Assembly: GCA_027485595.1 (NCBI GenBank)
Contig: JAIXQT010000075.1
Span: 44,589 to 108,588 of the forward strand
DNA length: 64,000 bases
Reading direction: 5' to 3'
Source of the DNA: Pseudomonadota bacterium
Lineage (GTDB): Bacteria; Bdellovibrionota_C; UBA2361; OMII01
In this document: positions 34,234 to 62,731 of the stretch, one piece after another
How positions within the stretch are numbered: position 1 is the stretch's first letter
Layout: each line of letters opens with the position of its first letter
Notes under the pieces: generated by a model
Databases searched by the model: none
What the model was told of the DNA's origin: nothing
Seen by the model: only the letters and a program-made list of their open reading frames with translations
Program-made: the position numbers and the translations under genes

Positions 34234-37200
34234 TTATGGGAGCAGCGTTTGGTGCAGGTTTTGCGAGCGAATGAGTGAGTAGTGAGCAGGGATAGTAAAG
34301 AGGGGTGTGTTTCTCTCACCCTGTCGCAGGAGACGTCGGTACACCGTTCGGGATTCGTTGTCGACCCAGAAGATCCCTGGGGCCTGTGTAAGTGCGTCTG
34401 TTAAAAATATACCTGTCGAAATGGTAGCGCTTCGGGCCACATAAAACAGTGGAAACGCGAACGTCCCCGCTAAGGTCGTTATACGCATCTGTCGGCCATT
34501 GTTGTTGGTGCCACCCAATATCGCGAGTAAGGGAACTTCAGAGCTACCGCGACGAACAACGAAACCTCGGAGAAATGGGTTATAGCTGTGCGCGGCGATT
34601 CGCTTGCCGGATAGATCGAACGCCGCGACACCGGGCTTGCGTCGATCGCCTCTCGCTACCTTAAAAATAATTTCATCTACTCCATCAGAGTTGATATCCC
34701 CACACCCGATCAGATCTCCGGAAAGGGATCTGGGGAGCTCGGTCACGCGCTTACTCGGAGAGTTATAGGCCCTCGTGTGCAGCTTCCTCTCGGCTCTATC
34801 GTAGACCGCCAACGATGAGCCGGTCTGTGTGGTGAATGAACAGCCGGTGATGACGGTGTCCCCAGAGCTTCCAAAGCTGACGCTTTGAATATCCCCTAAT
34901 GAAGAGAGTTTAATATTCCACCTGAGACCTGCCTCGGTAACCGCAACGGCAGCCAGGTCAGTGGTTCCGTCGCCATCGTAGTCAGCCGGCACTGGGTAGC
35001 GCCCCTCCACGGTCGTTGAGGACCACATGCTGTCCCGAGTGTGGCGACTCTTAAAGGTGACAGCGGCTCCTGTTGTACGCGATACGGTGATAGCTGTATC
35101 GCCCGTCCCATCGAAGTCGAGGGGAGCAGCCTCAACGACAACGACTGATGTCGCCTCGGATGGTGCGCTTCTACCTCCGTTTTCCGCGATAAAGGTAGTA
35201 ACGATTTGGTGTCGACCCGCGGCAAGCGTTGGTAACGTAAACTCCCATGTCCCCGCTTGAGACATCATTCCTTGAGCACCCCTTTCCGAACCGGATATCA
35301 CGGTCGTTCCAACCACGATGCCGTTGATCGCGATCTCCACGACATGTCCCGGAATACCGGTTCCTGAGAGTGTGACCGCTTTTTTGTTCGTGATCACCGG
35401 TTGTGTCCCGTATTCGGCATCAGGAACTCCGATACGAGCTTGAGCTGGTGGGACGATCGTTGGCGTGAGTGTTGGGGTTACGGTTGCCGTTGGGGTAGGG
35501 GTGGCTGTTCTGGTGGAAGTTGGAGTTGGTGTCGATGTTGGAGTTGCGGTGCTCGTTGGAGTCGAAGTTGATGTGGCGGTGGAGGTTACCGTAGGGGTGG
35601 GCGTCCAGAGAGCGCACGTGCTCGGCTCCCCAACGCATGAGAAACCCGCGTCCTGTCGGCAGGTATTAGAGCATCCGTCCGCGACAGCCGAGCCCGCGTC
35701 TGTGTAGCGGCCGACAGTGATATTCCCTTGGAAGATACTTTCAATCGTAAAGAGAATTCCTAATGAGGAGATCGTAGCAGCTCTCATATACGACACGGGT
35801 AGTCTCGATGACGTGCCGTAGGTGGTATCGAGTTGACCACTAGAAGAGTAGCGATACACGCCCGCCAGCCAACCAGTATTTCCGACAAGCACACTGCCGT
35901 TACTCTGTGGAAGGGCATAGAGCGCATTGCCGACAGAATCTAAAATTTCAACCGTGCCACCACTCCCCCAGGTTGTATCAGTTGTTCCGTCAGCATTGAG
36001 ACGAAGAACCTGCCCGGCGTACCCACAATCCTCACAATTTCTTGTCACATGCAGGGAGATAAGGAGCTTTCCATCGGTAGTAAGCGCGAGGTGATTCGTT
36101 TGAACGTAGTCCGGGTATAGGGATATGGTGCGCACTCCATTGGTGCCGAAGGAGGTGTCGAGCGTGCCATCAGAATTGTATCGTGCAAGCCCCGCTCGAT
36201 ACTCACTCCCTTCCACGACAGTTCCGGCTACCACTATCTTTTGGTCACCCTGAATCGCTACGGCAAAAGCATCGCCACCTGTTCCCCACGGCAGGAGCAG
36301 AGCCTTGCCATCGCCATCGAATGTTGAATCCAAGGAGCCATCAGCGTTGTAACGAACGACGCAAAAGCGAGAGTCGGCCGTGCCGGCCACAACGATCTTT
36401 CCATCAGCTTGGACGGCTATCGCTCGAGCGTAGGCTTGCGTTGACCCGACCTGTGTTAACACCTGACCGTCGCCATCGAACGTTGTGTCGAGGACTCCTG
36501 CTGACGTCAGACGAATGAGGGCGAGCCGGCTCACCCCTCCGAAAGTTGCGCGCGCTGCCCCGGCCATGAGGATCTTGCCATCTTGTTGTACTGCTATTCG
36601 GCCGATATTGGTTGAAAACGCTACCGGGATGAGCGCCTGTCCGGTGCCGTTAAATGTTGTGTCGAATTCTCCCTGGGCGTTAATGCGAAAAATACCCCAC
36701 TGGTTGTCTCCGCCGCTTCCCGAAACGCTTGCGCCCACAACCACCTTGCCACCGGGATAAGGTTGAGCGTCTGAGGGTGAAACGAATGTTGCGGACGAGA
36801 TCGAGAAGGATCGGGGATTTGACGCTGCGTCGTCGCACTCCTCCGCGCCTCTCACTAATCCATCGCCGCAGACCGGAGAGCAAGATGTGCCGGTGCAGGT
36901 GTAGCCCGCTTCTCGTGCGCAGGTGCTTGAGCATCCATCGCCAGATGTTGTGTTACCATCATCGCATGTTTCTGGCGCTGTTGTTTGAGAATCTCCACAA
37001 TCGCAGGGATCTCCGATGCCGTCGTTGTCATAATCCTGATTAGATTCGGCTACCAGAGCTGGGCAGAGGTCACAGGCGTCTCCATGATAGTCCCCATCAG
37101 AGTTGGCCTGATCGACGTTCGAGATCGTTGGGCAGTTGTCAACGTTGCCGCACAACCCGTCCCCATCAACATCGTTGTTAGAAGATAACGGGCAGGTGTC

Positions 37201-37428
37201 GCACTCATCCCCGCGGCCATCAAGGTCGTTGTCCACCTGCCAGCAGCCATCGTCACAGACCTCAGGGTTGTAAACTCCGGGGCAGTTGTCCCAACTATCG
37301 TCCACGTAATCTCCGTCAGCATCTACCGCCCAGGCCATGGTGGGAGCCGAAAACATAAGGAACAACGCGACAATGGCGTGGATCCATTTTGATGGTGCAG
37401 TGGCTTCAAGGTAGGGGGAACGCATCAT
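34234..37428 (-). CDS. Large secreted multi-domain surface protein with thrombospondin-3-like Ca-binding repeats, a Myxococcus-type Cys-rich repeat, a delta-60 repeat propeller, a Thr/Pro linker and an Ig-like/FG-GAP-like C-terminal region
   Basis: Signal peptide; D-x-D-x-D-G repeats (DNDLDGRGDECD, DVDGDGLCG, DYDNDGIGDPCD); CGDGLVRGAEECDD; recurrent LDTTFDGDGQ / LDSTFDGDGK / TLDTSFGTNG / TTDTTWGSGG motifs; a TPTPT linker; DYDGDGTTDL and GDINSDGVDE. Confidence 0.7.
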   Translation of the reverse strand: MMRSPYLEATAPSKWIHAIVALFLMFSAPTMAWAVDADGDYVDDSWDNCPGVYNPEVCDDGCWQVDNDLDGRGDECDTCPLSSNNDVDGDGLCGNVDNCPTISNVDQANSDGDYHGDACDLCPALVAESNQDYDNDGIGDPCDCGDSQTTAPETCDDGNTTSGDGCSSTCAREAGYTCTGTSCSPVCGDGLVRGAEECDDAASNPRSFSISSATFVSPSDAQPYPGGKVVVGASVSGSGGDNQWGIFRINAQGEFDTTFNGTGQALIPVAFSTNIGRIAVQQDGKILMAGAARATFGGVSRLALIRLTSAGVLDTTFDGDGQVLTQVGSTQAYARAIAVQADGKIVVAGTADSRFCVVRYNADGSLDSTFDGDGKALLLPWGTGGDAFAVAIQGDQKIVVAGTVVEGSEYRAGLARYNSDGTLDTSFGTNGVRTISLYPDYVQTNHLALTTDGKLLISLHVTRNCEDCGYAGQVLRLNADGTTDTTWGSGGTVEILDSVGNALYALPQSNGSVLVGNTGWLAGVYRYSSSGQLDTTYGTSSRLPVSYMRAATISSLGILFTIESIFQGNITVGRYTDAGSAVADGCSNTCRQDAGFSCVGEPSTCALWTPTPTVTSTATSTSTPTSTATPTSTPTPTSTRTATPTPTATVTPTLTPTIVPPAQARIGVPDAEYGTQPVITNKKAVTLSGTGIPGHVVEIAINGIVVGTTVISGSERGAQGMMSQAGTWEFTLPTLAAGRHQIVTTFIAENGGRSAPSEATSVVVVEAAPLDFDGTGDTAITVSRTTGAAVTFKSRHTRDSMWSSTTVEGRYPVPADYDGDGTTDLAAVAVTEAGLRWNIKLSSLGDIQSVSFGSSGDTVITGCSFTTQTGSSLAVYDRAERKLHTRAYNSPSKRVTELPRSLSGDLIGCGDINSDGVDEIIFKVARGDRRKPGVAAFDLSGKRIAAHSYNPFLRGFVVRRGSSEVPLLAILGGTNNNGRQMRITTLAGTFAFPLFYVARSATISTGIFLTDALTQAPGIFWVDNESRTVYRRLLRQGERNTPLFTIPAHYSLIRSQNLHQTLLP
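35455..35615. repeat. Low-complexity Thr/Pro/Ser-linker coding repeat inside the large surface protein gene
   Basis: It encodes TPTPTVTSTATSTSTPTSTATPTSTPTPTSTRTATPTPTATVTPTLTPT. The reverse strand gives a spurious GV-rich ORF. Confidence 0.6.
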
Positions 37429-37627
37429 GAGCTACAATCCTTCGCACCATAAGGTCGGCTCCCCTGGCCTGTTTCTTGAGGATTAAAAGCCCCTTAGGAC
37501 GGTAGGTGTTCTTGGGAGTGCGTTCGATTTGTACGAGACGGCTCTGCAGGAGAGATTGCGCCTATCTAAAGCCCTGGAATGTCTATGGTATGTGGTTGAT
37601 GTGAGCGTGGACTGGTTAGCCGCGGGC

Positions 37628-56632: not shown

Positions 56633-57300
56633 CTGGAAAATTCGCTCCTATCTTTCTGGGTAGTGCCTCACCAGGGTGGGCCACACATAGTTGCCACTAC
56701 CAAAGACGAGAGGAGAATTCGATGCCCTGTGTCCTCCCTTTATGGACATGGATACATGATGAGGGCAGTGCGAGACCCTGACCTATCCCACATTAGACCA
56801 TACCCGAGAGTCCTCAAGGATATCGAGCGCCCAGCGAAAGTGCCTCAAGACTTTGGTACACCCTACTTTTCAAAAGTAGGCGAAGTTGTTGAAATCGCAG
56901 GTTAGCTGAAACTATCTCTGATATGCACTGCGGCGCTTGGGCGGCTTCGATTAAGGAGGGTGTGTCAGAGGATTGAGCTAAGCAGATAGGACTCCTTACA
57001 ATCGGCCACTGGCGTAATTAGTTGTTTGATAAGTAACCCCAGACCTGGAGGAGAAAGAAGCACGCGCAGGTCTCTTAATAATGAAGAGGAAAACGGAGCG
57101 AAAAGGGACGTTTCCTTTTGTGATGCCTCTAACCGGTCTTGGTGTCGTGACTGGATGTAGTAGCCCCGGTACAGAGGAACAATTTTTTGATCAAAGGACC
57201 AAGGATCAAAGGGAACCAACCCCTCCTAGCGGAGGGGATCAAGGATGTCCGCCGTAGCGCCACAGGCGCGAAGGTGGGAACCCAATGACCGAGGACTAAA

Positions 57301-57909
57301 TTATTTTGATTCCGCAGAAGCGCGCACAAACAACGCCCCATAGCGAGGAAAGCCGTAGTGGAGCCAGTGGAAGTTGTCGCGAACACGCCGACCATCAACA
57401 TCAAGCCCGCCTCGAACATCCCGCACGCACCGCTCTCGGTAGGTCTCTAGAGCGTTCTTTTCTGCGTCATTGATAGTGTCGTTGCCTTCTTTCGCTAAGA
57501 GGCCTTCAACATAGGCCCGGTTCTCTTCGCGGGTAGCAACTCGGTAACCTCCTAACCTTTCAGCATAGGATGTCTGATCCGCTCGTGATTTATTGAAAGA
57601 CCCTTCCGACAGGAGGGTATCTAATTGCTGACCCTTTACTGATATTTGACCCACTACAGCCTGATGATTGTCGATGGTCTTGATCTCGCTGACAGCTTGC
57701 GATTGTGCATCGGACTGGGCGGCTTCAGTGCTTGTGAGAGCTTGCAGAAATTTTACTCGCGCCTCAGGAGAAATCGCTTTGAGCGCCTCTGACGTCATGT
57801 CAGATACTAGATGGTCAAGCACTGCGGTCTTGCCTGCTTGTGGCAGGATACCAGCTGCACTCTTAGCTACCTCAACTGCTGCTTTCGTATCTATTGCTGG
57901 GCTAGTCAT
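57301..57909 (-). CDS. Hypothetical protein (202 aa), translationally coupled to an upstream 53-aa ORF
   Basis: The ORF has no motif. Its ATG overlaps the stop of the small upstream ORF (ATGA). Confidence 0.45.
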   Translation of the reverse strand: MTSPAIDTKAAVEVAKSAAGILPQAGKTAVLDHLVSDMTSEALKAISPEARVKFLQALTSTEAAQSDAQSQAVSEIKTIDNHQAVVGQISVKGQQLDTLLSEGSFNKSRADQTSYAERLGGYRVATREENRAYVEGLLAKEGNDTINDAEKNALETYRERCVRDVRGGLDVDGRRVRDNFHWLHYGFPRYGALFVRASAESK

Positions 57910-58067
57910 TGTGCTTCCCTCCGAGCCTTATCCTCTTCAACTATCGAAACGAGGCGTTTTGCTATCTCAATCTTCTCTTCTATGGAGAGCATTGGAGATG
58001 CTCGCAGCGCTTCTATGCGCCGTACGATCTCAGCTACCTTATCCTCGGTTTTCGTATCGTTTTCCAT
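57906..58067 (-). CDS. Small helical protein (53 aa; MENDTKTEDKVAEIVRRIEALRASPMLSIEEKIEIAKRLVSIVEEDKARREAQ), not in the ORF track because it is under 60 aa
   Basis: Hand-translated from the reverse complement of 57906..58067. The ATG is at 58067 and the TGA overlaps the ATG of the 202-aa gene. Confidence 0.4.
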   Translation of the reverse strand: MENDTKTEDKVAEIVRRIEALRASPMLSIEEKIEIAKRLVSIVEEDKARREAQ

Positions 58068-58665
58068 AGCTCCCTTATCTAGAGTCTAAATCAATCCGCG
58101 CGCCAATCAACTGCTGTTGCAATCTGCCGGTTTGGGACGTCTTGCGTGCCTGCCTCAAAATACCCACGAAGGGTCTACGGGAACTCCCGTTGCTCGAACT
58201 TTAAAATGGAGATGTGGCTCACCTAGCTATCTCTCTCACAGACCCCGCGCAAGGGATTCCGAGCTTAGATGGGGGCACTCGCCTGAAATCTTGAGATATT
58301 CAGATATGATTTGAAATCATACGACCCGCGAATTTTTCGCGCGCGCTCTCTGAGAAAAATGGTAGGGGGAAAGTGGTAGGGGAACGGGTCCGCTGTTCCG
58401 AGGCCGCCAGCCTTCACGGATGGCTGGAACCGATCTGGCGACGCTATCACTGAAATCTCCGCGCCCCAGAGATCTGCTTAGAGCCATCCATCGCAGCAAC
58501 GGGGTGTAGCAAGCTCCGACGACGTCCGAAGCATGATTTTTCCCGCCACCGCCAACTAGCTGCTTTCAAATCGCTTTTCTACCTACCTACTCATTCCGGG
58601 CGCACCATCGCGACAAACCTTAACTAATTGCCGGGTCATGCCGACCTACGAACGTATGTGGGGAT

Positions 58666-61600
58666 TTGCCATTTTTTGTATGCGACGCATCCCCTCCGTT
58701 TCGGCAATGCGGGGAAAGCATGGGGCACTTAATACAAATACGGAGCTTGAAGCCGATGGCGGCGCTGATCGTCATCGCCGTTGTGGTCGGACTTATTGCG
58801 CTGCCCAATCTACGGCAGCGGCCCCAACTTCCGATTGACGTACGCAAGGTGAGCTCTCTTGAGGAAATATCATTCAATCCAGAGGGAACGTGGAAGGTCA
58901 CTCTCAACGAGGGAGAGACGCTCAAAGAGTACGAGGTCTATGACGCATCAGGGCGAGTAAATCTCTCTCGAGCGAAGTCAATCCTTGCCTACTTTTGGGA
59001 TAGAGTGATTTTCAGTGAAACCTTAGATGTCGAGGGAGAGAATCTTGCGATATTTAGGGTCTCTACAACAGCAGACGGAGATCTCAAGAGCTCGCCCGTA
59101 TTCCGCCGAAGCTATAAACTCTTCGGTATCTCCTCAACCGGCAAGCTCGTCGGCTTTCGGGATGTACAGGGCTCTCTCCCCTCAGGGGCACCCGAATTGC
59201 TCTTCAACTTCGGGCCATTTCTCAAAGGGGGCGCCACCAACATCGGCAGTGGGTCTATCAGCATCCCCCTCGAGATTTCCCAGAAAGAGGATGCTCTCCG
59301 CGTACGAAGCATTGGTCAAACGACCGAGCCGCAAGCGTTTGTGGCCGCCACTGTCAAAACCCCCTCCGGCATCAAGGTCCGCGGGTACCTCATAAAACTA
59401 TCAGGAGCATCCCTGGCTCTTCCATCCCTCGATCAGGTTGTGGACAACGCGCAGAAGGGGGTCGTAGCAGAGACGATCACCGCACCAACTTACAAGAGCA
59501 AGGATGCTCAGGGCTCAAGAGACCTCGGCGGCTCACCAACCACGGGCTCGAACGGCCCCTCAAAGGACAAAGGAAAGGTCTCGATTGACTCAGTAAACGC
59601 TTCGGCTTCAGTCCGTACCCCGACAAGAACACCGACCGTGACGCCAACCCATACCCCGAGCCGAACTCCCACCAGAACACCGACGGCGACTCCGACAATG
59701 ACCCCTACTCGCACACCGACGGTAACACCGACCACCACTCCGAGCCGCACGCCGACGAGGATTCCAACGGCCACTCCGAGCCGCACGCCCACACGTACCC
59801 CAACGGCACCTCCAACAAGAACACCTACTCAAACACCAACCGCGACGCCTACAGCGACCCCCACGCGGACTCCAACTGCCACACCCACGAAAAAATGTGG
59901 TGATGGAGTTAAAAATATTGGAGAGGAGTGTGACAGTGGTAATAAGAATTCAAATTTAAGCGATCAATGTAGAACTGATTGTAGGATGCCAAAGTGTGGG
60001 GATGGGATAAAAGATAGCAATGAAACTTGTGACATTAATGATTTTAAAGGATTGGTAAAACCGAAAAAAATGCCAGAGGATGTTTTCGCGCAAAAAGTTT
60101 GTCATTCATCATGCAATATTGTCACTTATCCAAATTATTGTGGTGATTGGATAACAAATATTGATTTAGGAGAAGAATGTGATCATGGCGAAAATAACTC
60201 TAATTTAGGTTATGAATGTAGAACTAATTGCACAGTGCCAAAATGTGGTGACGGAATAAAAGATTTAAATGAAGCCTGTGACATTGGCGTACTAAATAAA
60301 GATAGTTTTAGTGGCTGTGATACAAAATGCAGAACGACAATTTGTGGAGATGGAAACGTTACAGGTGCTGAAGAGTGTGACGACGCGAATACGAATGATA
60401 CAGACAATTGTACCAATGTATGCCGGCAATCAAGATGCGGTGATAATATAAAAAATGGACAAGAAATTTGTGACGCGAATGATTTTGCGGGAATAATAAA
60501 ACCAGAAAATATGCCCGAAGATGTTTTTGCAAAAAAAATCTGTGATTCATCATGTAATCTTTCTTATCCAGAACATTGTGGTGATGGAATAAAAAATGTT
60601 GATGAAGAATGTGATACTAATGATTTTAGAGAAGTAATTAAGTCTGAAGAAATGCCAGATATTATCTTCAGAAATAAAAAATGTGACTACAATACATGTA
60701 AGGTTATCTACGAACCATTATGTGCAAAAGGTCAAGTTTTGAATTGTATAGATGAGTGTCCTAGCGATTCTAACAAAGCCGACCCTGGAGTCTGTGGCTG
60801 CGGAGTAACAGATACCGATACCGATACCGATGGTGATGGAACAGTAGATTGTATTGATGAATGTCCTGAAGATAGTAATAAAAATAAAGTTGGAGGTGGA
60901 TGTGGGCTCGTTGATATCGACTCAGATAACGATGGTACTCCTGATTATAAAGATCAGTGTATAGAAGATGCTAATAAACATGACTCTGGACAGTGCGGTT
61001 GTGGTGTAGCGGATCTGGATTCAGACCGAGATGGCACTGCTGATTGTAAAGATGAATGTCCTGATAATGCTTCATTAACAGCAAAAGGAATATGTGGATG
61101 TTCAGGAGATGAGGATTCAGATGGAGATGGTACTCTTAATTGTGAAGATCAGTGTGTATCAGACAGCAAGAAAACATCACCAGGACATTGTGGATGTGGC
61201 AATGCAGATTACGTTGTAGATGACCAACCAAGTTGCTCTAAACATGTACTTGCACTAGAGCCAGCACCAACTGCCACACAAACACCGACACCTGAAACCT
61301 CTCAGGGAACTCAGCAAAAATGTTGTGTTTGTTTATATGAAGAAGAGTTTAAATCTGAGTGTGGAGTTTGGAGAAATAAAACTGGAGGTTGTACTAGTGG
61401 TGGTGATTATCCATTGAGTAGTAGCGAAATGAGTCCTCAAAGTGTTTGTGGAGATGTATCTAATGTAGAAGTTTATACTGCTGCTCATATGGATGAATCT
61501 GATGCAGCGTGTCTTTCAGACATTTCAGAAACTTTAGTTAGCTCATTACCAGCATTAACTTCTTGTCACATAATACTAGATGGATGCAATTCTTTTAATA

Positions 61601-61959
61601 ATATGAATCTAGCTAATGCAGAAGCTAGGAGAATTAGACAATACCTAAATAGTTGTGGACGTACGAATGTAGAGGTAACTATTGAGGGAAATGAAAATAT
61701 TACTTCAGATCTTACAGGGGCTCCTGGTAATACTCGTTGTTCTCCAAGAGGAATTAGAGTTTGTGCACGTACTATTACTGACGTATTACATAAATGTCAT
61801 CCTGCTGGAAGTGACTGTTGGACGGACCCGCAGAATCTAGATAGTAGAACGTGCACTGAGGCTGGAGTGACAAAAACTCAAGTTTGTGTAGCAAATGGTG
61901 GAAACGAAAATAATAATGGGGATGGGAGTGGAGCCGGAACTTGGCAATTTCGAAATTAA
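58666..61959 (+). CDS. Membrane-anchored large cysteine-rich repeat protein (N-terminal TM, unknown domain, Thr/Pro linker, Myxococcus-type Cys-rich repeats, thrombospondin-3-like repeats, novel Cys-rich C-terminal domain); probable start ATG 58720
   Basis: TM helix [17 protein letters not shown]; the TPTRTPT linker; repeated CGDG(I/V)K...EECD modules; TSP3-like [38 protein letters not shown]. From ~59890 onward the DNA is strongly AT-rich. Confidence 0.65.
59617..59892. repeat. Thr/Pro-linker coding repeat ((T/R/S)PT)n inside the 58666..61959 gene
   Basis: It encodes [31 protein letters not shown]... The reverse strand yields a spurious GV-rich ORF. Confidence 0.6.
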
Positions 61960-62169
61960 AGTTTAGTTGATCTGCCCCCTCAGTTAGTACCAGCCCTGAT
62001 TAGGTTTCCCAGATATTTTTCCTGCCTAACATATTTATTCATGGCTGTCTTGCAGTCCCTCGGCGTGGTTGAGATTCCGAGTGAGCTATGTCACCGTCCA
62101 CTTTCCGGCGTCCTAGCGACCAAGCATGAGTCTCGTACCCTTGCGCTTCCACGATTAAGGAGGTGCAGG

Positions 62170-62280
62170 ATGAGAAGACCACGACGCACTGAAGAAGAGC
62201 GACGCGCAATAATCGAGCGAACTCTGACAAGCGGACGACCGATAGCTGAGATAGCGGCGGAGGCAGGGATTTCGCGCTAA
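62170..62280 (+). mobile_element. Truncated IS3-family transposase OrfA fragment (HTH region only, about 36 codons)
   Basis: MRRPRRTEEERRAIIERTLTSGRPIAEIAAEAGISR stops where IS3 OrfA proteins continue. AGGAGG lies 7 nt upstream of the ATG. No orfB or inverted repeats were found. Confidence 0.5.
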
Positions 62281-62731
62281 ACGATCCAAAGTTGAATGCG
62301 AACACCGAAGAGTGACAAGGAAGGCTTCATTGAGGTCTCCCCACCCCGCGCTACAGTTGTAGGCCGAAAAGGGGACGTTTCCCCAAAAAAGTAGAGTCCC
62401 CTTTCCCTGTTCATAGGACCAGAGGGCGAAGGAGGTCACAGAGATATTACACGCGCCCCAACAGACTCTCCGTTTTCAACTTGGTCTCCACCGAGACGCG
62501 ATTCCGTCCAGATGAGCGCGAATTTGGTGTTCACGCGATTCCCCCAGGCACGTTTATTTTCGGCGCGTGCACGAAATGGGGGTGAGCCTCTGTTCCATGA
62601 CGAGGCTGATGCAGGGGGGCGTTGCTTGGGGGGACGGGGCAGGGGGGAGGTGGGCGGTCCTTGCCAGAAAAAGGGCAGGAAGTAAGCGAAGCTTGCCATG
62701 AAAGGTAGCGCAACCGTTCTCCTCTTCACCT

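Follow-up and report, generated by a model that had tools for sequence, protein, structure and literature searches.

The subject of this analysis is a gene on the plus strand of contig JAIXQT010000075.1 (assembly GCA_027485595.1), which lies within a stretch of 64 kb referred to here as the window; all coordinates are positions in this whole window. The gene encodes a predicted surface protein of 1079 amino acids (aa), and its 3' two-thirds are much richer in AT than its 5' third. The best explanation, in which we have good confidence, is that of a mosaic gene composed of a native 5' third and a single horizontally acquired low-GC 3' block, joined in frame at the end of a linker. The parts of the gene are given below, GC3 being the GC fraction at third codon positions.

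58720..61959, plus strand: the whole mosaic gene from the open reading frame (ORF) list, 1079 aa from ATG 58720, with the stop codon at 61957-61959
58720..58812, plus strand: putative signal anchor or signal peptide with a basic n-region ahead of a hydrophobic stretch, as read from the translation
58756..59610, plus strand: native N-terminal domain (N-domain), about 285 aa without Cys, ending in SI.SVNASA; GC 0.548, GC3 0.61
59611..59889, plus strand: Thr/Pro linker, about 93 aa of (R/A/V)TPT repeats with 12-nt periodicity (repeat family D1); GC 0.64, GC3 0.55
59890..61982, plus strand: AT-rich cassette of 2.09 kb, comprising 689 codons, the stop codon and about 22 nt; GC 0.379, GC3 0.19
59890..60741, plus strand: about seven Cys-rich "CGDG..EECD" repeats (DUF4215/TIGR02232), with DNA repeat families D2, D3, D5 and D6
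60742..61236, plus strand: four or five repeats of the calcium-binding TSP3 type, D.D.DG..DC.D.CP.D..K ... CGCG (repeat family D4, spacing 96-99 nt)
61237..61317, plus strand: second, Pro/Thr linker, short and hypervariable, with 68% nucleotide identity to the closest relative (L001) and indels
61318..61956, plus strand: C-terminal Cys-rich domain (C-domain), about 213 aa, of a rare family with a predicted caspase/haemoglobinase (clan CD) fold, most like peptidase family C80

The right end of the cassette is the point at which homology to L001 ceases. The cassette encodes all 64 Cys residues of the protein, the native part having none.

The change in composition is abrupt. In sliding windows of 200 nt, GC is 0.57-0.65 across 59100-59899 (0.63-0.65 at 59600-59899), 0.475 at 59800-59999 and 0.355 at 59900-60099, after which it stays at 0.29-0.45 until about 61900 and is 0.51-0.55 again from 62000. 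The profile thus contains the step at about 59890, at the linker end, that the initial annotation had proposed, and the GC content of the 3' part, put there in the high 30s %, was measured as 0.379. As read from the sequence, the break falls at 59889/59890 between two codons, with ...cccacg before it and aaaaaatgtggtgatgg after it; this is the position of the last Thr of the linker, which is followed by KKCGDG. Composition recovers about 22 nt past the stop codon. The 1157 windows of the same length elsewhere have a mean GC of 0.548 (standard deviation 0.017, minimum 0.499), which gives the cassette a z-score of -9.8. The whole window has a GC of 0.543, with every other 1-kb bin at 0.485 or above.

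The drop in GC reflects codon usage and not amino-acid content. From 0.61 in the N-domain and 0.55 in the Thr/Pro linker, GC3 falls to 0.19 in the cassette, where it is uniform over the three sub-modules (0.21, 0.19 and 0.17); the 23 other ORFs of more than 300 aa in the window have values of 0.53-0.66. A single donor fits this uniformity. The cassette frame contains no stop codon, against about 54 expected from base composition and 23-109 in the other five frames. GC skew is about -0.4 in the linker with its ACN/CCN codons (59600-59899) and +0.2 to +0.5 in the cassette (59900-61100), a flip that is a second compositional signature of the junction.

A control for these values is present in the same window. 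The gene at 34237-37431 on the minus strand is GC-normal and encodes a secreted protein of 1065 aa with TSP_3 (E 3e-10) and DUF4215 (E 3.7e-7) repeats, four DUF5122 beta-propeller repeats, a Thr/Pro linker (aa 609-662) and a Big_13 domain. Its repeat segment has a GC3 of 0.57 and its Thr/Pro linker one of 0.50. This shows that AT-richness is not forced by encoding such repeats and that Thr/Pro linkers are native to the host genome.

The same fused gene exists in a relative. The closest database protein, P0001, is encoded on ENA scaffold KRAE22-1 scaffold_13114 (L001) and is 92% identical in amino acids over its full length, with the identical in-frame junction, the same AT-rich part and the same GC step. 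The two assemblies are independent and differ by about 6% in sequence. For the synonymous divergence (dS) between them, the N-domain gives 0.056 and the cassette 0.118; these values are of the same order of magnitude, which implies that the two halves have been inherited together since the lineages split. The ratio of nonsynonymous to synonymous divergence (dN/dS) is 0.19-0.38 in the repeat modules, and the substitutions in the cassette have no strong directional bias, with 53 changes from W (A or T) to S (G or C) and 40 from S to W. The fusion is therefore real and inherited, and it did not arise very recently in the window genome alone: the join is older than the separation of this genome from one related population or more, and the composition of the cassette has so far not moved toward that of the host. 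The recent acquisition that had been suggested is not borne out. L001 carries the same AT-rich part with no insertion sequence (IS) relic of this kind in its 450 nt downstream, as the initial annotation had expected of an old, ameliorated gene, but amelioration of the cassette has not taken place. A further relative, L004 from "Proteobacteria bacterium C1_MAG_00071", shares the N-domain, at 90% aa identity, as well as the upstream 202-aa gene, and its contig ends inside the Thr/Pro linker, before the junction. An exact look-up of the mosaic protein (with two start codons) and of the neighbouring fumarase returned no record.

The native part of the gene belongs to a very small family in Bdellovibrionota-like metagenome-assembled genomes (MAGs). 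The N-domain matches no Pfam or NCBIfam family, and its AF2 model was unusable, with a predicted local distance difference test score (pLDDT) of 34. A scan of 185,579 genomes, one per species, yielded four loci, namely L004 and L005 from C1_MAG_00071 and L006 and L007 from two Lake Mendota Bdellovibrionota MAGs; L001, P0121 and P0123 are the other members. As the searches for proteins homologous to the N-domain and to the DUF4215 region seem to have listed only those of up to about 1.75 times the query length, with P0001 and the relatives of about 1100 aa missing, the N-domain family is under-sampled, and the family sizes from these searches are lower bounds. What follows the N-domain varies. 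In the window lineage the Thr/Pro linker comes directly after it and then the AT-rich cassette (window, L001 and probably L004). L005, L006 and L007 have at this place a GC-normal "FDC..G.FLIWRV" domain unrelated to the cassette, to which L006 (1097 aa) and L007 (1150 aa) add two more modules with long Thr/Pro linkers between them, and P0121 (on L002) is a stand-alone form of 279 aa with nothing attached. No N-domain gene other than those of the window type has such an AT-rich region.

A conserved N-terminal part with variable C-terminal parts is thus found across the homologs, and a comparison of related genomes for alternative C-termini, which the initial annotation had proposed, did reveal them in other members of the N-domain family. 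Judging from these architectures the family is modular, with Thr/Pro linkers as its joints. Since the other members carry different, GC-normal modules joined by such linkers, the C-terminal modules appear to have been replaced in the window lineage. The earlier proposal that the C-terminal module was acquired or exchanged at the linker is upheld by the GC3 of 0.19 versus 0.6, by the sharp boundaries and by the normal composition of the native TSP3/DUF4215 gene. The L002 contig also has a second, weaker N-domain-like stretch at 357-1126 (67% nucleotide identity to window 58708-59477), which is not called as a gene on that strand and may be a paralog or a pseudogene.

Three start codons are possible for the mosaic gene: TTG 58666, where the mechanically called ORF begins, ATG 58720, and the equivalent of ATG 58756 that is used for P0001. 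Of these, one of the two ATG codons is more probable as the true start than the TTG. ATG 58720 is favoured by homology, as the N-terminus aligns with MGNLKRLWNVKPVAAL... in L006 and MGSPVRIKPLAAI... in L007 with the shared pattern MG..(K/R)..KP.AA.... The "GLIALPN.R" motif of the anchor region is kept in all members of the N-domain family. A prepilin-like N-terminus, suggested by "GLIALPN", was rejected as the G/F...E5 leader motif is lacking.

The modules of the cassette are recognisable to different degrees. The in-frame Cys-rich repeats of the Myxococcus type that were noticed earlier are matched above the curated cut-offs by DUF4215 (PF13948; E 2e-6, 28.4 bits against a cut-off of 27) and, in five stretches, by TIGR02232 (E 3e-6, 26.9 bits against 20.8); the insert NDF..(I/V)K...MP(E/D).(F)..K.C is present in three of the approximately seven repeats. 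The TSP3-like repeats reported alongside them score below the Pfam cut-off of 25 with TSP_3 (PF02412; E 0.002, 18.1 bits). The stretch does match thousands of TSP3 proteins at 50-60% identity, many of them annotated with PF02412, and these matches together with the D.D.DG..D motif support its assignment as a TSP3-like repeat. The final 215 aa or so match no Pfam or NCBIfam family, which agrees with the earlier statement that the last ~210 aa have no recognisable family. The combination of DUF4215 repeats, TSP3 repeats and a C-terminal protease-like domain was found in the window lineage only.

The C-domain was modelled with AF2 from an alignment of 13 family sequences, with a pLDDT of 83 and a predicted template modelling score of 0.80. 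In a fold comparison the top three matches of this model were TcdB and TcdA (two chains) of C. difficile, with scores of 9.4, 8.8 and 8.2 and 150-156 of 216 residues aligned. These were followed, at 6.2-8.0, by caspases 4, 3, 9 and 8, CED-3, MALT1, the DUF4347 effector domain of a type VI secretion system (T6SS), metacaspases, legumain and glycosylphosphatidylinositol transamidase; generic Rossmann-like proteins scored 6-7.6 in the same comparison. The best fold match is thus family C80, which comprises the cysteine protease domains (CPDs) of MARTX toxins and of TcdA/TcdB. The central sheet of the model has the caspase/haemoglobinase topology that characterises clan CD. In this clan, strands 3 and 4 bear the dyad residues His and Cys at their C-terminal ends, and a Gly adjoins the His (PMC4357240). 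Two residues of the C-domain, numbered from TTG 58666, are candidates for such a dyad.

61486..61488, plus strand: codon of His941, the only invariant His of the family and candidate catalytic residue, just past model strand E52-58
61585..61587, plus strand: codon of Cys974, invariant and candidate catalytic residue, just past model strand E85-90

In the model and the alignment, His941 stands just past the third strand and Cys974 just past the fourth. In C80 domains, helices 4 and 5 of the caspases give way to a beta-flap, which lies between strands 5 and 6 (PMC4357240). The model has a strand E122-131 and after it beta strands only (E144-215) and no helices, which is consistent with the description of the C80 beta-flap.

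Several observations speak against this assignment. A Foldseek search of the C-domain against the PDB gave nothing below E 0.001, with a MARTX CPD at rank 32 (E 0.033), and profile searches with the C-domain family and subfamily against PDB sequences returned no protease but only generic helix-strand de novo designs. None of the 13 family members reaches the cut-off of the Pfam C80 profile (PF11713). P0133 alone gives a weak match to it (E 0.011, 16.4 bits against 23.8), and this match falls on a helix-strand segment of generic type, to which de novo designed proteins are similar as well. The invariant His is followed by Gly in most members, and by Met in the window protein. Other Cys residues are as invariant as Cys974, so that its invariance is not specific; these others are probably engaged in disulfides. 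On balance, the model makes a caspase-type, CPD-like fold likely, and the question whether the domain is catalytically active is evenly poised.

The C-domain also differs from known C80 domains in ways beyond its failure to reach the sequence-profile cut-off. It stands at the extreme C-terminus, whereas C80 domains are internal, and it is very Cys-rich, with about 18 Cys in 216 aa, for which reason it is presumably disulfide-bonded and extracytoplasmic. Known C80 domains are switched on by inositol hexakisphosphate (InsP6) in the eukaryotic cytosol. No pointer to an InsP6 pocket or a eukaryotic target was found in the C-domain. An upstream Leu is present in the window protein (VLAL) and absent from the ortholog P0001, which argues against a conserved Leu cleavage site.

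Relatives of the C-domain are rare. An exhaustive HMMER search found 12 among 1.84 billion representatives, and scans of viral and JGI metagenome contigs found none. In all 11 relatives whose sequence was examined the domain is C-terminal, and the proteins are otherwise diverse, including coiled-coil plus Ig-like proteins and Cys/Asp-rich repeat proteins. The nearest two, P0124 (on L008) and P0125/P0136, have a Pro/Thr-rich (P/T(E)) linker directly upstream of the domain. The carrying contigs have a GC of 0.39-0.45, and the genes match the composition of their own contigs. One carrier, L011, belongs to Candidatus Paceibacterota of the candidate phyla radiation (CPR), as its RF-1 falls in the same 90%-identity cluster as MCF7865638.1. 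Another relative, P0130 (687 aa with a long Thr-rich tract; L009 6749-8812), is encoded inside the dcw cell-division and cell-wall cluster between ftsI and murE. P0133 and P0135 adjoin ribosomal protein genes in low-GC contigs, of which that of P0135 is from Candidatus Paceibacterota.

A eukaryotic or giant-virus donor was considered for the cassette, the top TSP3 match being an MMETSP transcript. It was rejected because this match covers the repeats only and the viral scan was negative; the C-domain carriers that were checked sit among bacterial genes, which also speaks against it. Peribacteria encode large extracellular Cys-rich proteins for which a role in attachment has been proposed and strain-level variation noted (PMC4736985). 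These proteins share the DUF4215/TIGR02232 repeat type with the cassette but only about 36% identity, and the genomes in question have 58.5% GC (PMC4736985), so that they are not the AT-rich donor.

The mosaic gene has probably arisen as follows. The 5' third, with its membrane anchor, its Cys-free lineage-specific domain and its spacer of about 93 aa rich in Thr and Pro, is native to a Bdellovibrionota-like genome of about 55% GC. The 3' two-thirds, from 59890 to about 61982, are most likely one block from a donor of much lower GC (GC3 of about 0.2), possibly a CPR-like bacterium. Where the Thr/Pro linker ends, this block was fused in frame, in place of the C-terminal modules that the ancestor had. 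Pro/Thr linkers precede the C-domain in its two closest relatives and also separate the modules of the recipient family, and recombination in or next to linker DNA is for this reason a likely way of swapping modules in frame.

The product would be an extracytoplasmic stalk protein tethered at its N-terminus. From the anchor outward it would consist of an extended, possibly glycosylated spacer, the disulfide-rich DUF4215 repeats, the calcium-binding TSP3 repeats, the Pro/Thr spacer and a caspase-fold domain. With its candidate dyad His941/Cys974, this distal domain is predicted to be closest to the self-cleaving CPD of MARTX and the large clostridial toxins. Attachment to another cell or surface is the job that such an architecture suggests. 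If the terminal domain is a protease, it could cut its own Pro/Thr linker, leading to release or activation, or it could cut a target protein.

Some findings weigh against a mosaic of this origin or limit what can be said of it. No donor was found and no sampled carrier has a GC3 as low as 0.19, so that the donor taxon and the direction of transfer are inferred from composition alone. The nearest C-domain relative outside the lineage has 42% identity, and the nearest relatives of the DUF4215 region, in Candidatus Peribacteraceae/Peregrinibacteria and in Myxococcota, have about 36%. The dS of the cassette is about twice that of the N-domain, which could mean a different history or merely a different mutation rate in AT-rich DNA, and dN/dS in the C-domain is 0.76, a value based on few substitutions. 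The localisation and function of the protein are likewise inferred.

Two neighbours of the mosaic gene enter into the discussion of how the block was assembled.

57301..57909, minus strand: ORF of 202 aa without a Pfam or NCBIfam match, kept beside the mosaic gene in L004 with 77.5% aa identity
62170..62280, plus strand: relic of a transposase accessory gene, 36 codons encoding a helix-turn-helix only, with a ribosome-binding site (AAGGAGG) at 62156-62162

The relic has the ribosome-binding site, ATG and helix-turn-helix that were described for it, but its designation as an IS3 orfA has to be revised. Its best family match is IS66-like TnpA (NF047595; E 4.9e-5), of which it covers profile positions 1-35 of 113, only the first third, at 23.9 bits, far under the family cut-off of 74. 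The match to Pfam HTH_Tnp_1 has an E of 0.0026, and the IS3 label is explained by IS3 OrfA sharing this helix-turn-helix family. An IS3 element consists of an orfA helix-turn-helix, a frameshifted DDE orfB and inverted repeats, and the relic does not fit this description. From 62280 to the fumarase gene no transposase ORF follows it, neither tnpB nor tnpC, and there are no convincing inverted repeats around it. Stitching the relic to the downstream "GFIEV..." frame did not extend the IS66 TnpA match, and a tblastn search against plasmids gave no match. In L001, homology to the window ends about 22 nt past the stop codon, and a further 450 nt downstream contain neither related sequence nor the relic; the relic can consequently not be tied to the join at 59890, and the link between the exchange and the adjacent IS, which the initial annotation had drawn, is not supported.

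The block common to the window, L001 and L004 is confined to 57197-61982 and spans two genes, the mosaic one and that for the 202-aa protein. Homology is lost to the left of it in L004 and to the right of it in L001. The 202-aa gene accompanies the mosaic gene in L004, with unrelated sequence beyond the block, and so belongs to the conserved block; it is the only neighbour that travels with the mosaic gene. Within the window, the short motif CGATTAAGGAGG occurs only on either side of the block, at 56948 and 62152, as does AARGGGACGTTTCC, at 57102 and 62369, with the same order and orientation on both sides; the regions concerned are 56936-57115 and 62140-62382. About 130 nt of the left flank (56915-57046) recur inverted downstream of the gene in L001 (L001 4300-4470). 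The idea that the two flanks are two copies of one element was discarded, as their full alignment is at chance level and only the short motifs agree. The motifs may be decayed IS66-like ends or scars of rearrangement. Together these features hint, on thin evidence, at a movement of the block or at rearrangement hot spots along its borders. Scans for tRNA genes and Rfam families as an integration site found none near the locus, and promoter and terminator scans of the locus were uninformative.

Other explanations for the locus have to be weighed against these data. The initial annotation had compared the architecture with that of contact-dependent toxins, and a locus of the polymorphic-toxin or contact-dependent inhibition type would have a conserved delivery part and an exchangeable toxin cassette, recently swapped with the help of an IS. 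The resemblance to systems such as CdiA-CT, Rhs and MAFB extends to a conserved N-terminal part with alternative C-termini (here after the conserved SI.SVNASA), a break in composition at the junction and mobile-element debris nearby, in this case the IS relic 210 nt downstream; in addition, the terminal domain has the predicted fold of a self-cleaving protease domain associated with toxins. This last likeness speaks in part for the earlier view. On the whole, a toxin cassette is not supported. The exchanged unit is an adhesin-like array of 689 aa and not a compact toxin, and C80 in MARTX and Tcd toxins is a processing module and not the toxic effector (PMC4357240). The region 61960-62730 holds no immunity-like ORF, as had been noted before, but only the relic and small unconserved ORFs, and the corresponding DNA in L001 is unrelated. 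The orphan copies of the AT-rich module that had been suggested as a search target do not occur in the 64 kb, nor does a second cassette; a tblastn search of the cassette against the window found only the GC-normal gene at 34237-37431, with 35-41% identity over repeat units. Neither a VENN or PxxxxDPxGL delimiting motif nor a known delivery domain is present, the neighbouring genes scanned include no two-partner, T6SS or Rhs components, and the same cassette has been kept in a relative at a dS of about 0.1. A contact-dependent toxin is thus very unlikely. An assembly or binning chimera of two organisms' DNA, for which one could cite that the L004 contig ends in the Thr/Pro linker and that assemblers hence do break there, is scarcely credible: two independent assemblies about 6% apart share the identical in-frame junction with dS of the same order in both halves, the frame is open across the junction for 1079 codons, and host-like DNA resumes beyond the cassette in the window.

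Alternatively, the gene could be old and native, with local mutation bias, or selection favouring slow translation or silencing, having raised the AT content of its 3' part. This would account for the same composition in the ortholog P0001/L001, and the host does natively encode TSP3 and DUF4215 repeats. It is nevertheless highly improbable. The step is complete in under about 30 nt and falls on a domain boundary, and a GC3 of 0.19 prevails throughout three kinds of module that are unrelated to each other, against 0.57 in the native TSP3/DUF4215 gene. No other N-domain gene has an AT-rich region, and the differences within the cassette are not strongly biased in either direction (53 W-to-S, 40 S-to-W). 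Movement of the whole two-gene block 57197-61982 as a mobile unit on an IS66-flanked segment, the fusion having happened earlier and elsewhere, is compatible with a mosaic gene but rather unlikely. It would explain why homology among the window, L004 and L001 is limited to this block while the flanks differ, why CGATTAAGGAGG and AARGGGACGTTTCC flank it in the same order and orientation, with an IS66 TnpA relic in the right-hand copy, and why part of the left flank is found inverted downstream of the gene in L001. Yet the flanks agree in short motifs only, with an overall alignment at chance level; no transposase gene, terminal inverted repeats or target-site duplication was identified, and ordinary rearrangement between diverged genomes also explains differing flanks. 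Any movement of the block was between similar genomes, as its native parts are host-like in composition. The mosaic gene with a horizontally acquired 3' block accordingly remains the preferred reading.

Mosaic surface-protein genes formed by horizontal transfer and intragenic recombination are already known, and the present gene shares with them the in-frame join of compositionally different segments at a domain or linker boundary. What is new is the contrast, which is unusually large (GC3 0.61 vs 0.19), the unusually sharp step and the protease-like terminal domain; the foreign piece brings three types of module, including an undescribed domain family. The locus is therefore a clean case of the capture of distal modules by a surface protein at a low-complexity linker, with a GC-normal control in the same window. 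It also indicates that the foreign half of such genes may be lost to MAG assembly or binning, since the related MAG contig (L004) stops in the linker. The rare C-terminal domain may be a protease and, if this is confirmed, would be a new clan CD family. This would further suggest that a protease caps the long calcium-binding stalks of some CPR and predatory-type bacteria, a point relevant to the ways in which these cells attach to others or attack them. As a tentative and rather doubtful extension, the C-domain would found a new clan CD family, rich in disulfides and extracytoplasmic, that caps large surface proteins chiefly of uncultivated low-GC bacteria, CPR/Patescibacteria among them. In the same reading, an entire "adhesin plus protease" tip module would have passed between phyla into a Bdellovibrionota-like lineage, and repeats of the Pro/Thr linker would have served as the in-frame recombination joint.

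Variation in repeat number between relatives is another trait shared with known mosaic surface-protein genes. Length differences between the window and L001 genes occur in repeats and linkers only: the Thr/Pro linkers differ by an indel of 16 aa, and one complete TSP3 unit of 32 aa (within 60900-61000) is present in the window and missing from L001. Upstream of the gene, L001 has at 248-465 an insertion of about 220 nt rich in TCN/GAC (Ser/Asp-like) repeats, which is absent from the window at the corresponding place (58368-58381).

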